IMG/VR virus record: IMGVR_UViG_2740892036_000003 | DNA length: 19,748 bases | Reading direction: 5' to 3' (one strand) | Source: a virus | Lineage: Duplodnaviria > Heunggongvirae > Uroviricota > Caudoviricetes | Shown: in pieces, positions 276 to 8,933 of the stretch | Position numbering within the stretch: position 1 is the stretch's first letter | Layout of the letters: every line of letters begins with the position of its first letter | Translations under genes and position numbers: made by a program | The notes under the pieces: model-generated | Told to the model about the DNA's origin: nothing | Databases searched by the model: none | What the model saw: only the letters and a program-made list of their open reading frames with translations

Positions 276-1535
276 TTACTTCGCCTTTCTCAGCGGTGTA
301 ACGTTGTACTCTTCGCCGCGCTCCAGTGCCACCAGCAATCCCGCCCACTGTGTTAACGCGGCCCGGCGTTCATCAAAGTATTGGTGGCGGTTATAGATAC
401 CCTCCACGCCTTTAATTTTGTGGTTAAGGCATCTTTCTGCGACTACAGGATCAACGCCCAGCGCGGCTAAATGGGTGCGGGCCGTGCGCCGGAAGTCGTG
501 AATAGTGAAATTCGGCACGTCCGGCATTTCAGCGCGAACCTTCGCCAGCGCAACGGGCAGGGTGCTTTCCTGAATATGGGGGATCATGCGGTTTTGCATC
601 TTTCTGGCTGGCAGTACCCATGCGCTGTTGCATGAGAACGTTTTAAGCTCTCTCAGCCATTCGACTGCTGGCGGTGCTAATGGAATGTCTATAGCGTCGC
701 CGTTTTTGCTGCGTTCCTCTGGCAAGCGCCATACGGCTTTATCAAGATCGAACTCCTCCCAGCGGGCGGCGCATAACTCCATTTTGCGGACGCATAACGC
801 TAACAGTAATTTGAACGTGATTTCATTCTGGCGACTGAAACCCTTAGCCGTGCGCATGGCTTTGAATAGCTGGATTAACTCATCGCGTGTTAGCCAGCGG
901 TCGCGGCTAACCTCCTTCCCTCCAGCGTCTGCCACCTCAAAGGCTGAACAGGGGTTAATCTCCAGCGCGTGCCGTTTGATTCCGTAGTCGAATATGCGGC
1001 GCGTCCATCTCAGCACGTCCGTTGCTATGGTCGGCGCTCCACGGTCAACAATACCTTTCAGCATGTCGTCGATATGGCGCGGCTTCACGTCCTCTACCTT
1101 CATGCTGCCAATGCAGGGGTTTATATCTTTGTCGATACGGCGGCGGAGTATATCGGGGTGCTTCCAGCGGGGCAGTATCTGACGTTCAAAGTATTCAGCG
1201 GCAAGCTCTGAAACGCGCATGGCGTTTTTTTCTGCTTCCATCTTCGCCAGTGCTTCGGATTTCCGCTCCTGCTTCTCCCCGGCAACGTCATAACCCAGCG
1301 CAACACGCGCCGAAAGCTCCTTTGCTGTCTCTCTGGCCTTTGATAGTGATAGCTCGCTATACGAACCAATTAGCATTGCGCGGGACTTCCCTGCGAGTTT
1401 ATAGCGGAATCTCCATGTGGGGGTTTTGTCGGCTTCACGGTAACGCAGGTATAAGCCGTTCCCGTCCGCCCGTCCCTCGAATCGCTCTCCGGCCTTTATC
1501 CACGCGCGGATCTGCATGTCTGTGAGTTTTGGCAT
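276..1535 (-). CDS. Phage-type tyrosine recombinase / integrase (P4 / CP4-57-like family), about 419 aa
   Basis: Track ORF 276..1598 (-). The upstream 21 codons are probably not translated; an N-terminus MPKLTDMQIRAW (ATG at 1535) is typical of this family. C-terminal catalytic signature HDFRRTARTHL ... LNHKIKGVEGIYNRHQY (His/Arg box and tyrosine nucleophile) is present. Stop TAA at 278..276. Confidence 0.88.
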   Translation of the reverse strand: MPKLTDMQIRAWIKAGERFEGRADGNGLYLRYREADKTPTWRFRYKLAGKSRAMLIGSYSELSLSKARETAKELSARVALGYDVAGEKQERKSEALAKMEAEKNAMRVSELAAEYFERQILPRWKHPDILRRRIDKDINPCIGSMKVEDVKPRHIDDMLKGIVDRGAPTIATDVLRWTRRIFDYGIKRHALEINPCSAFEVADAGGKEVSRDRWLTRDELIQLFKAMRTAKGFSRQNEITFKLLLALCVRKMELCAARWEEFDLDKAVWRLPEERSKNGDAIDIPLAPPAVEWLRELKTFSCNSAWVLPARKMQNRMIPHIQESTLPVALAKVRAEMPDVPNFTIHDFRRTARTHLAALGVDPVVAERCLNHKIKGVEGIYNRHQYFDERRAALTQWAGLLVALERGEEYNVTPLRKAK

Positions 1536-1573: not shown

Positions 1574-1627
1574 GGTGTACCCAAATTGATGTACACAAAC
1601 CTCATTGGGTACACCTTTGTGTACACG
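1574..1627. promoter_or_regulatory. Array of four GTAC-centred sites (GGTGTACCC, GATGTACAC, GGGTACACC, GTGTACAC) 40-90 bp upstream of the integrase start; candidate operator or integrase/excisionase arm-type sites
   Basis: Read directly: site A 1574-1582, site B 1588-1596, site C 1607-1615 (exact reverse complement of A), site D 1619-1626 (perfect 8-bp palindrome). Function is inferred from position only. Confidence 0.4.
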
Positions 1628-1671
1628 GCAATCATGCGCTTTGTTGCGTCTTTATGATAGCCGATGATAAC

Positions 1672-1698
1672 AAAAAAGCCCGCTGGATTGCGGGCTTT
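1672..1698 (-). terminator. Rho-independent terminator downstream of yicC
   Basis: On the minus strand: stem GCCCGC (1695-1690), 6-nt loop, stem GCGGGC (1683-1678), followed by a T6 run (1677-1672). About 40 nt past the yicC stop. Confidence 0.6.
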
Positions 1699-1735: not shown

Positions 1736-2599
1736 TTACTCGATATTCTGAATCTGCTCGCGCATCTGCTCAATCAACACTTTCAGCTCAATCGCGGAGT
1801 TTGTCACTTCGGCATTGATAGACTTCGACGCAAGAGTGTTCGACTCGCGGTTGAATTCCTGCATCATAAAGTCCAGACGACGACCAACGGCTTCTTTTTT
1901 CTTCAGAATGTTGTAGGTCTCTTTGACATGCGCTTCCAGGCGGTCCAGTTCTTCGGCAACGTCAATTCGTTGTGCCAGCAGAACCAGCTCCTGCTCCAGA
2001 CGGTTGTTTTCCAACTGAACCTGAGCATCTTCCAGCTTCGCGACCAGACGCTCACGCTGCCATTGCAGGATTTCCGGCATATGGGCGCGGACTTTGACCA
2101 CTTCGGCGGTGACGCCTTCCAGACGCTGCTCGATCAATGCTTTCAGTGCCTGACCTTCGGTTTCGCGCGCGACAATAAAGTCGTCCAGCGTACCATCCAG
2201 CGCCGCGAGAATTTCAGCGGCAATGGCGTCAAGATCCTGCTCCTGGGCTGCCATCACGCCCGGCCAGCGTAGAATATCAACCGGGTTGATTTCCCCTTCG
2301 TCACTCTGCATTTTTACCCAGTTCGCGGCAGTTACCAGCTGTTTAGCCAGTTTTTCGTTGAGGATCAGCTCACCTTGCGCGCTAACATCTGGCTCATAGC
2401 GCAGGGTACATTCCACTTTACCGCGCGTCAGGCGAGAACGAATACGCTCGCGAACGACAGGTTCAAGGCTACGGAACTGCTCCGGCAGACGAAAGTAAGT
2501 TTCCAGATAACGCTGGTTTACCGAGCGCATTTCCCAGGTTGCGCTCCCCCATTCACCCTTGATTTCACGCCGGGCGTAGGCGGTCATACTGCGGATCAT
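1736..2599 (-). CDS. yicC: YicC-family protein (UPF0701; stress-induced, reported endoribonuclease), 287 aa
   Basis: Track ORF 1736..2599 (-), MIRSMTAYARREIKGEWGSATWEMRSVNQRYL...; length and sequence recognised as E. coli YicC; synteny with rph-pyrE. Confidence 0.9.
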   Translation of the reverse strand: MIRSMTAYARREIKGEWGSATWEMRSVNQRYLETYFRLPEQFRSLEPVVRERIRSRLTRGKVECTLRYEPDVSAQGELILNEKLAKQLVTAANWVKMQSDEGEINPVDILRWPGVMAAQEQDLDAIAAEILAALDGTLDDFIVARETEGQALKALIEQRLEGVTAEVVKVRAHMPEILQWQRERLVAKLEDAQVQLENNRLEQELVLLAQRIDVAEELDRLEAHVKETYNILKKKEAVGRRLDFMMQEFNRESNTLASKSINAEVTNSAIELKVLIEQMREQIQNIE

Positions 2600-3507: not shown

Positions 3508-4149
3508 ATGAAACCATATCAGCGCCAGTTTATTGAATTTGCGCTTGGCAAGCAGGTGTTAAAGTTTGGCGAGTTTACGTTGAAGTCCGGGCGCAAAAGC
3601 CCCTATTTCTTCAACGCCGGGCTGTTTAATACCGGGCGCGATCTGGCACTGTTAGGCCGTTTTTACGCTGAAGCGTTGGTGGATTCCGGCCTTGAGTTCG
3701 ATCTGCTGTTTGGCCCTGCTTACAAAGGGATCCCGATTGCGACCACTACCGCCGTGGCGCTGGCGGAGCATCATGACCTTGACCTGCCGTACTGCTTTAA
3801 CCGCAAAGAGGCAAAAGACCACGGTGAAGGCGGCAATCTGGTTGGTAGCGCGTTACAAGGACGCGTAATGCTGGTAGATGATGTGATCACCGCCGGAACG
3901 GCGATTCGCGAATCGATGGAGATTATTCAGGCTAATGGCGCGACGCTTGCTGGCGTATTGATTTCGCTTGATCGTCAGGAACGGGGGCGCGGCGAGATTT
4001 CGGCGATTCAGGAAGTTGAGCGTGATTACAACTGCAAAGTGATCTCTATCATCACCCTGAAAGATCTGATTGCCTATCTGGAAGAGAAGCCGGAAATGGC
4101 GGAACATCTGGCGGCGGTTAAGGCCTATCGCGAAGAGTTTGGCGTTTAA
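3508..4149 (+). CDS. pyrE: Orotate phosphoribosyltransferase, 213 aa
   Basis: Track ORF 3493..4149. Start at ATG 3508 ([29 protein letters not shown]...) with GAGGAG RBS at 3495-3500. Confidence 0.93.
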
Positions 4150-4156
4150 AGAAACT

Positions 4157-4180
4157 CGCCGGATGAAAAGTCATCCGGCG
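4157..4180. terminator. Perfect 10-bp stem hairpin between convergent pyrE and slmA (REP-like; probable bidirectional terminator)
   Basis: CGCCGGATGA (4157-4166), loop AAAG, TCATCCGGCG (4171-4180). Confidence 0.5.
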
Positions 4181-8123: not shown

Positions 8124-8933
8124 ATGCCTGAATTACCCGAAGTTGAAACCAGCCGTCGCGGCATAGAACCGCATCTCGTTGGTGCAACCATTCTTCATGC
8201 AGTGGTGCGCAACGGACGCTTGCGCTGGCCGGTTTCAGAAGAGATCTACCGTTTAAGCGACCAACCAGTGCTTAGCGTGCAGCGGCGGGCTAAATATTTG
8301 CTGCTGGAGCTGCCTGAGGGCTGGATTATCATTCATTTGGGGATGTCTGGCAGCCTGCGCATCCTTCCAGAAGAACTTCCCCCTGAAAAGCATGACCATG
8401 TGGATTTGGTGATGAGCAACGGTAAAGTGCTGCGCTACACCGATCCGCGCCGCTTTGGTGCCTGGCTGTGGACCAAAGAGCTGGAAGGGCATAATGTGCT
8501 GGCCCATCTTGGACCGGAGCCGCTCAGCGACGATTTCAATGGTGAGTATCTGCATCAGAAGTGCGCGAAGAAAAAAACGGCGATTAAACCGTGGCTGATG
8601 GATAACAAGCTGGTGGTAGGGGTAGGGAATATCTATGCCAGCGAATCACTGTTTGCGGCGGGGATCCATCCGGATCGGCTGGCGTCATCACTGTCGCTGG
8701 CAGAGTGTGAATTGTTAGCTCGGGTGATTAAAGCGGTGTTGCTGCGTTCGATTGAGCAGGGTGGTACAACGCTGAAAGATTTTCTGCAAAGTGATGGTAA
8801 ACCGGGCTATTTCGCGCAGGAATTGCAGGTTTACGGGCGAAAAGGCGAGCCGTGTCGGGTGTGCGGTACGCCGATTGTGGCGACTAAACATGCGCAGCGG
8901 GCAACGTTTTATTGTCGGCAGTGCCAGAAGTAA
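8124..8933 (+). CDS. mutM: Formamidopyrimidine-DNA glycosylase (Fpg), 269 aa
   Basis: Track ORF 8097..8933. Real start is ATG at 8124 ([20 protein letters not shown]...), with the N-terminal PELPEVE catalytic motif and a C-terminal zinc finger (CRVCGTPIV...CRQCQ). Confidence 0.92.

Follow-up and report, generated by a model that had tools for sequence, protein, structure and literature searches.

Four GTAC-centred sites crowd into 54 bp upstream of an integrase gene in the stretch of DNA analysed here (the window, 19,748 nucleotides at full length), raising the question of what the array is and which protein would read it. The first-pass annotation had described it as a symmetric repeat array placed where an int promoter and operator, or arm-type recombinase or excisionase sites, might be expected. 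Re-reading the window letters located all four sites at the positions given there, and the array does lie upstream of int, 39–91 bp from an ATG at 1535 on the minus strand.

1574–1582, plus strand: site 1, GGTGTACCC; single putative arm repeat in the orientation opposite to that of the tandem pair, centred 43.5 bp from the int ATG
1588–1596, plus strand: site 2, GATGTACAC; extra, facultative putative arm repeat, oriented as site 1
1607–1615, minus strand: site 3, GGGTACACC; exact reverse complement of site 1, half of the tandem pair
1619–1626, minus strand: site 4, GTGTACAC; perfect palindrome, half of the tandem pair
1607–1626, minus strand: int-proximal tandem pair (sites 3 and 4), GTGTACACaaaGGTGTACCC in the int sense; 12-bp period, midpoint 136 bp from the core described below

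The array is neither diffuse nor readily produced by composition. Five of the six GTACAC hexamers in the 19.7-kb window fall within 1575–1626, and all three matches to GKGTACMC lie in the array, with 0.39 expected. Among 5000 windows simulated with a first-order Markov model, four plain GTAC sites came together within 54 bp in 21 and four GTACMC-type sites in none, bearing out the earlier opinion that a chance origin is unlikely.

The organization of the sites is nonetheless other than it first appeared. The GTAC centres stand 43.5, 57.5, 75.5 and 87.5 bp from the int ATG, and the resulting spacings of 14, 18 and 12 bp recur in every E. coli copy examined (the window, L001 and L003–L006). When five diverged E. 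coli variants are aligned, GTAC is invariant at the four int-side sites while the intervening spacers diverge. The consensus of the repeats is GTGTACMC inside a 12-bp unit. The repeat array as such thus stands, but the palindromes do not hold up as its functional unit, which is instead the tandem pair formed by sites 3 and 4 at a period of 12 bp, together with the oppositely oriented sites 1 and 2.

The array lies inside an island at the end of yicC

The window corresponds to the E. coli yicC–rph–pyrE...waa region, and its int-region sequence is 100% identical in strain D5 (locus L001), where int is the last gene of a ~13.5 kb island between yicC and dinD. The D5 island encodes int, a hypothetical protein, an AlpA-type helix-turn-helix (HTH) protein, AntA/AntB, an Icd-like protein, a TOPRIM/DUF927 primase, SSB, PerC and a dinD paralogue. 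In other E. coli strains (L003–L006) the same place is taken by four diverged forms of it. Across L001 and L003–L006, RefSeq annotates int, AlpA/HTH, AntA/AntB, Icd-like, a P4-family or DUF927 primase, SSB and PerC. These are the hallmarks of Gram-negative PICI-like elements, namely small size, int and alpA genes, a Bro/Ant zone, a primase/replication zone and site-specific integration. Judged by its gene order and site-specific insertion, then, the island is PICI-like, and reference PICIs are known to integrate into yicC (preprint 10.1101/2022.07.18.500453).

1736–2599, minus strand: yicC, the backbone gene whose 3′ end is the island target
1749–1756, no strand assigned: core identity block TGAATCTG, the likely strand-exchange region, from occupied junctions compared with the C600 empty site
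1736–1753, minus strand: island-supplied replacement of the last six yicC codons and, in addition, the stop; synonymous, TTACTCGATATTCTGAAT against TTATTCGATGTTCTGAAT in K-12
1675–1698, minus strand: island-supplied intrinsic terminator, between the core and the arm repeats, just past the rebuilt yicC end
1629–1672, no strand assigned: strongly conserved stretch that separates the tandem pair from the terminator, near-invariant in five E. coli variants

Comparison of both D5 junctions with the unoccupied site of C600 extends the core identity in E. coli to TTCTGAATCTG (1746–1756), while the shortest block common across genera is CAGATTCA on the int-sense strand (that is, TGAATCTG, 1749–1756). 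Read from these alignments, the crossover falls within the last codons of yicC. The match to most E. coli genomes begins at 1736. The terminator at 1675–1698 was found by a terminator scan and its position is conserved across the integrase clade; the native yicC terminator has been displaced to the far junction of the island (D5 compared with C600). The boundaries of the island are thereby fixed: the crossover lies in the last yicC codons, and the island supplies both a replacement gene end and a new terminator.

Is the array part of this island or of the chromosome beside it? The first-pass annotation had noted that its occurrence in genomes lacking the integrase would make it a backbone feature downstream of yicC. 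The unoccupied yicC–dinD spacer of C600 contains neither GTACAC nor GTGTAC, and the 205-bp int–yicC spacer is present in only 79 of 5426 genomes, 5425 of which have yicC. Because the array lies inside the junction and is absent from the empty site, it belongs to the island, lying 120–180 bp from the crossover, and is no part of the yicC backbone.

The block at 1629–1672, which separates the pair from the terminator, is more strongly conserved than the arm-site spacers. Its core, AAAGCGCA, lies 10–12 bp from the pair and is kept even in Betaproteobacteria loci, though not in the lineages carrying the GTACCA variant described below. An accessory-protein or accessory-factor site and an int promoter element are both candidates for this block.

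Matching repeats flank the core at fixed distances

Further copies of the motif had been suggested as something to look for at the other end of the element. That end lies outside the window and was read from L001 and L003–L006. A co-oriented pair, GGTACACCcttGTGTACAC, occurs there in D5, within aGGTACACCcttGTGTACACcg at L001 8250–8272 (the pair itself at 8251–8270), and the four other variants also carry a far-end pair; in all five its orientation is that of sites 3 and 4. The correspondence is visible as well as a 30-nt direct repeat (family D11; 87% identity) between window 1602–1631 and the island far end. The repeats are therefore inside the element and on both sides of the crossover core, as arm repeats are.

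The distances involved are close to constant. From pair midpoint to core centre, the E. coli copies measure 136 bp on the int side (135 in L005) and 77 bp on the far side, and other genera 131.5–136 bp and 76.5–78 bp, respectively, in the loci that reach the far end. This core distance is conserved far better than that of the array to the int start, for which values between 45 and 119 bp occur.

276–1535, minus strand: tyrosine integrase of the P4 family (Pfam PF13356, PF22022, PF00589)
1251–1535, minus strand: Int residues 1–95, N-terminal arm-binding domain (PF13356), the proposed reader of the repeats

The integrase has the domains that such sites call for. It matches the P4-type arm-binding domain PF13356 with an E value of 2.7e-19, followed by a central domain (PF22022) and a catalytic domain (PF00589). 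Its N-terminus also matches the arm-type binding domains in PDB entries 3jtz/3rmp (E 9e-6) and 3ju0, and its identity with P4 Int is 27% (E 1e-22).

P4 integrates into a tRNA-Leu gene, and its attP arm repeats were reportedly described by Pierson and Kahn in J Mol Biol in 1987. In the P4 record (NC_001609), 12-bp units are annotated as "attP arm sequence repeat": a tandem pair on the int side at 3942–3965 and another on the other side at 4151–4174, flanking a core at 4078–4097, together with an inverted single copy at 3915–3926, at the int start, that is the counterpart of site 1. Their sequences are ATTGGGGGCATA-ATTGGGGGCATC and GTGGGGGCACAA-AAGGGGGCATAT, with ATGTGCCCCCAA inverted. The two elements share a P4-family integrase with an N-terminal arm-binding domain, 12-bp units, a co-oriented pair on each side of the core, an inverted copy beside the int start and an int gene transcribed away from the core, and their pair midpoints stand at nearly the same distances from the core centre, 134 and 75 bp in P4 against 136 and 77 bp in the yicC island. 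They differ in the repeat itself (TGGGGGCA in P4, GTGTACMC in the island), in the position of the array, which is nearer the int start in P4, in the extra facultative site 2 of the island, and in target, the island using the 3′ end of a protein gene; their integrases, moreover, share only the 27% identity given above. Given the same layout, a homologous Int and matching arm-binding domains, we class the array as P4-type arm repeats.

We therefore favour, with a probability of roughly 0.85, the reading that a ~13.5 kb PICI-like yicC island has in this array the int-proximal arm of its attachment site, the repeats being arm-type sites of the island's own P4-family Int. Of the possibilities raised by the first-pass annotation, this is the arm-type recombinase option, which gains from both the far-end pair and the absence of the array from the empty site. 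From the layout we infer how Int would use these sites: its N-terminal domain would bind the arm repeats while its C-terminal domains would work on the core TGAATCTG at a distance of 136 bp; an Int tetramer would bridge both arms to the core, drawing on the far pair 77 bp from it; and the intasome so built would serve both integration (attP x attB) and excision. The feature is thus most likely genuine but ordinary, a set of P4-type attP arm repeats, a known kind, with a new sequence in a PICI-like island, and a formerly unannotated array can now be placed within the framework of heterobivalent tyrosine integrase arm sites.

Conservation and lineage variants among relatives

A scan for the integrase with one genome per species returned 79 loci, and 57 loci were counted for the integrase clade, whose members are 63–94% identical apart from a 42% identical member from Ferrimonas. 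Its members occur in Enterobacterales, Aeromonas, Tolumonas, Zobellella, Neisseriales and Rhodocyclales, most of them next to the 3′ end of yicC. Across L008–L059, the yicC-adjacent placement persists even where YicC itself is only ~43% identical. The tandem pair is kept in 53 of the 57 loci and site 1 in 51, at an offset of 44–45 from the pair, while site 2 is found in only 33, at an offset of 30, being degenerate or absent in, for example, L022, L025 and L052. These counts define the conserved design as the pair plus an inverted copy, with site 2 facultative. The P4 attP layout (~135 and ~76 bp) is in this way conserved in a yicC-targeting family reaching from Enterobacterales to Betaproteobacteria, even though its Int is so distant from that of P4.

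The sequence of the repeat varies by lineage. Most Enterobacterales have GTACAC/GTACCC; GTACCA is found in Yersinia, Rahnella, one Serratia locus, Pantoea and Zobellella; GTACAT is scattered over a set of loci; Azonexus and its relatives carry GTGCACCC (the GTGCAC lineage); and Ferrimonas has GGGTAKCA. Where the motif is GTACCA, site 1 reads TGGTAC, and the asymmetry of the motif in these lineages shows the pair to be a direct repeat, with sites 1 and 2 in inverted orientation.

Outside the E. coli set the far end was reached in five loci (L040, L055, L058, L059 and L078), and there the variants at the two ends match or nearly match; in L024, L028, L039, L046, L051 and L057, of the GTACAT, GTGCAC and GGGTAKCA lineages, the sequence analysed runs to 10 kb past int. 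The far pair is of the same lineage variant as the int-side repeats in the first four of the five, and in L078 one half-site is off by one base. That four to six sites change in concert, although the two arms are separated by more than 8 kb, speaks for a single reader encoded by the island. Three further loci (L042, L043 and L045) are not at yicC; the core-binding domain of their integrases is 48–55% identical and the N-domain 71–81%, and GTACMC is kept.

Expression of int

A search of 1450–1800 for sigma-70 consensus −35/−10 elements at 16–18 bp spacing, which would miss weak or activator-dependent promoters, found none, nor was the consensus found at the far end (L001 8100–8500). A weak promoter could drive int, as could read-through from yicC or, once the island is circular, a promoter at its far end, for which ICEKp1 offers a precedent (PMC13023037). 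The int-sense RNA of 1536–1675 is predicted to fold with −42.5 kcal/mol (z = −4.06), with a stem of GGUGUACCC and GGGUACACC, and an Rfam search of 1300–1900 returned only sub-threshold chance matches.

Since the array sits between the island terminator and the int start codon, it is plausible by analogy that Int bound there would also lower int expression. Negative autoregulation through att-overlapping sites has been shown for IntS of KplE1 (PMC2951348) and for IntI, a P4-like integrase, of PAI I536, and for P4 Int negative autoregulation is described in PMC2951348.

Alternative readers and readings

The protein most naturally set against Int as reader of the repeats is an excisionase of the AlpA/Vis type, which would bend the arm during excision and repress int. 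An AlpA-family HTH protein is encoded two genes from int; directionality factors typically bind direct repeats spaced by about one helical turn, a description that the 12-bp period fits; and the authors who described a doubled motif in helper-embedded PICIs (HE-PICIs) kept AlpA binding as an option for it (PMC10111431). Against this, the sites lie on both arms in a P4-like geometry, and in P4 the corresponding units are annotated as attP arm repeats. Nor, in these comparisons, does AlpA track the motif: AlpAs that are 78% identical accompany different motifs in L039 (GTACAT) and L033 (GTACCC), as do those of L024 and L020 (87%) and of L078 and L058 (72%), while identity within one motif class falls as low as 20%. 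The excisionase-site option of the first-pass annotation is accordingly disfavoured, and we consider it unlikely.

A role confined to expression fits the data less readily still. Were the array mainly an int promoter carrying the operator of a dimeric repressor that recognizes the palindrome GTGTACAC, recombination being unrelated, its position would make sense, as any dedicated int promoter, lying past the terminator, would have to be in or beside it, and a perfect palindrome is more typical of dimeric HTH targets than of arm sites. Yet the search of 1450–1800 picked up no sigma-70-like −35/−10 pair, the same pair of repeats recurs at the island far end, more than 11 kb from int, it is the core and not the int start to which the array keeps its distance, and GTACCA, the motif of some lineages, is no palindrome; we hold this to be very improbable. 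Much the same low weight attaches to a function at the RNA level, in which site 3 would pair with site 1 in an int-leader hairpin controlling translation or stability. The predicted fold does contain a site 3–site 1 stem, and P4 Vis has been proposed to act on int mRNA (described in PMC2951348); but any inverted pair of protein sites yields such a stem, the region holds no Rfam family, and the far-end pair and fixed core distance are left unexplained. As for the idea that the sites cluster by chance or belong to the backbone downstream of yicC, plain GTAC sites do occasionally cluster as tightly in simulation, but GTACMC-type sites never did, the empty site lacks the array, and the array is conserved across genera together with the integrase; we regard this reading as refuted.

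A segment of Int that co-varies with the motif

Residues 29–42 of Int, unlike AlpA, do track the motif across classes. The segment is LYLRYREADKTPTW, the window type, with GTACMC-AA, and LYLSYRENYQTPVW with GTACMC-CT. LY(I/L)C(Y/F)PxxYxxPFW accompanies GTACAT in E. coli, Rosenbergiella, Serratia, Chromobacterium and Tenebrionibacter (the L004 type being LYICYPKNYTVPFW), and LYLCYRESFAxPKW accompanies GTACCA (the Yersinia type being LYLCYRESFASPKW). Residues 33–40 form the loop of a predicted β-hairpin in a low-confidence, single-sequence AlphaFold model of residues 1–100 (pLDDT 60.5), which was used for secondary structure only.

Recombinant integrases are present in E. coli (L004 compared with L001), Rosenbergiella (L024 with L020) and Serratia (L028 with L022): residues 96–419 are 95–100% identical to those of the neighbour, whereas residues 1–95 and the adjacent arm repeats are of the other class. 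In L003 and L004, however, the far-end pair is of the other class, having stayed unchanged when the int-side repeats were swapped. With less than 150 bp between them, the coding segment and the int-side sites move together in recombination, and their co-variation is for that reason suggestive, not decisive; we had entertained it as decisive and dropped that view, given this adjacency and the unmatched far ends of L003 and L004. We therefore offer only tentatively, as somewhat short of an even chance, the idea that the segment at about residues 29–42 sets which 12-bp repeat is read, and that segment and adjacent repeats are exchanged between islands as one cassette.

Were that so, arm specificity would follow a readable protein–DNA code, and the HE-PICI motif, the GTGTACMC array and the P4 repeats would represent one architecture, in which ~135 bp separate the int-side pair from the core and the far arm is shorter (75–77 bp in P4 and the yicC island, 95 bp in the one HE-PICI measured). 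The variants GTACMC, GTACAT, GTACCA, GTGCAC and GGGTAKCA, with their paired Int-segment variants, make a ready test set for how arm specificity is encoded, one that could aid the prediction of att sites and the engineering of integrases.

Comparison with other integrase systems

In lambda, attP has the arm sites P1, P2 and P′1-3, and Int is heterobivalent, its N-domain binding the arms and its C-terminal domains the core. The yicC island resembles lambda in the general mechanism proposed for it and in having arms on both sides of the core, but differs in the family of the arm-binding domain and in the sequence, number and spacing of the sites; lambda int, moreover, is not read from an att arm. 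The heterobivalent mechanism is summarized in PMC2951348, which also describes the attL of KplE1 (CPS-53), where arm-type P′ sites of IntS overlap the intS promoter and integrase and directionality factor repress int. In KplE1 as in the yicC island, the region upstream of int is an att arm, with arm-type sites between the core and int; the KplE1 sites, by contrast, have a TAAA motif and are arranged otherwise, and in KplE1 a promoter and binding are demonstrated.

A closer comparison is with HE-PICIs, in which two co-oriented copies of a doubled motif, tgTGTATTGCantgTGTATTGCa, surround the attP centre; its authors proposed that it is bound by integrase arm domains or AlpA, and reported it as unique to HE-PICIs (PMC10111431). 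In one example (L106) we find three copies upstream of int, a pair at 73–85 bp and a third copy at 43 bp, as well as a far pair, with pair midpoints 137 bp from the core on the int side and 95 bp on the far side. Like the yicC island, this element has two co-oriented pairs of 12-bp period flanking the attP centre, the int-side pair being the farther and a single copy lying nearer int, and it is of the same type (int, alpA, Bro/Ant, primase). It differs in the sequence of the repeat, in a third copy that is direct and not inverted, in a far-arm distance that is off by ~18 bp (in this one example), in an integrase only 25% identical to that of the yicC island, in targeting prophage late genes and in supplying no replacement sequence.

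Two stricter equations between these systems were tried and rejected. The yicC array is not an instance of the HE-PICI doubled motif (TGTATTGC in tandem, twice per attP): it reads GTGTACMC, and the architecture alone is shared. Nor do the published HE-PICI distances of 81 and 132 bp (PMC10111431) add up to the same 213 bp as in the yicC island, as L106 gave 95 + 137 and only the int-side distance matches closely; the published values were probably measured from motif edges. The comparison nonetheless suggests that the "new doubled motif" of HE-PICIs is the same architecture as the layout of P4 and the yicC island.

Tandem pairs of this kind extend further. GTGTACATA-N3-GTGTACATA pairs stand just upstream of 11 distant P4-family int genes (22–30% identity, in viral contigs), with a second GTGTACATA pair on the same contig in two of the 11, one of which has a 16-bp direct repeat 144 and 91 bp from the pairs. 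Taken together with HE-PICIs and P4, these pairs indicate that a tandem 12-bp pair is general to the P4-type integrase family. A search of viral contigs with TGTACCA-N5-TGTACCA, a pattern too unspecific for the purpose, gave at least 120 matches, none of those listed being beside a related integrase.

Further observations on the islands

The first 72 nucleotides of the window are the end of a multi-copy element, of which an E. coli genome has a median of 10 copies and which also occurs on plasmids; we take this end to be the right end of IS1. The insertion sequence meets the island at position 72, which is 200 bp downstream of int and within the gene next after int in D5, and the junction at 72/73 is found in no complete E. 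coli genome of our collection; the island copy in the source genome may thus have been interrupted, disrupted or truncated by it.

In D5 the dinD paralogue (L001 8299–9123) adjoins the backbone dinD, the two sharing a 58-nt stretch of 86% identity at their 5′ ends, and is absent from the other E. coli island variants. Adjoining the primase gene, at L001 12638–12734, are iteron-like direct repeats, with TGTTGTCTCA units in a 34-nt repeat 63 bp apart (family D10), which may be the replication origin of the island. Six of the other loci (L010, L011, L012, L013, L017 and L024) carry a different doubled repeat 7.7–11.2 kb downstream of int, GGTACGCA-N4-GGTACGCA, with a 12-bp period and occurring twice in L012, which may represent either origin iterons or the arm sites of a second element.
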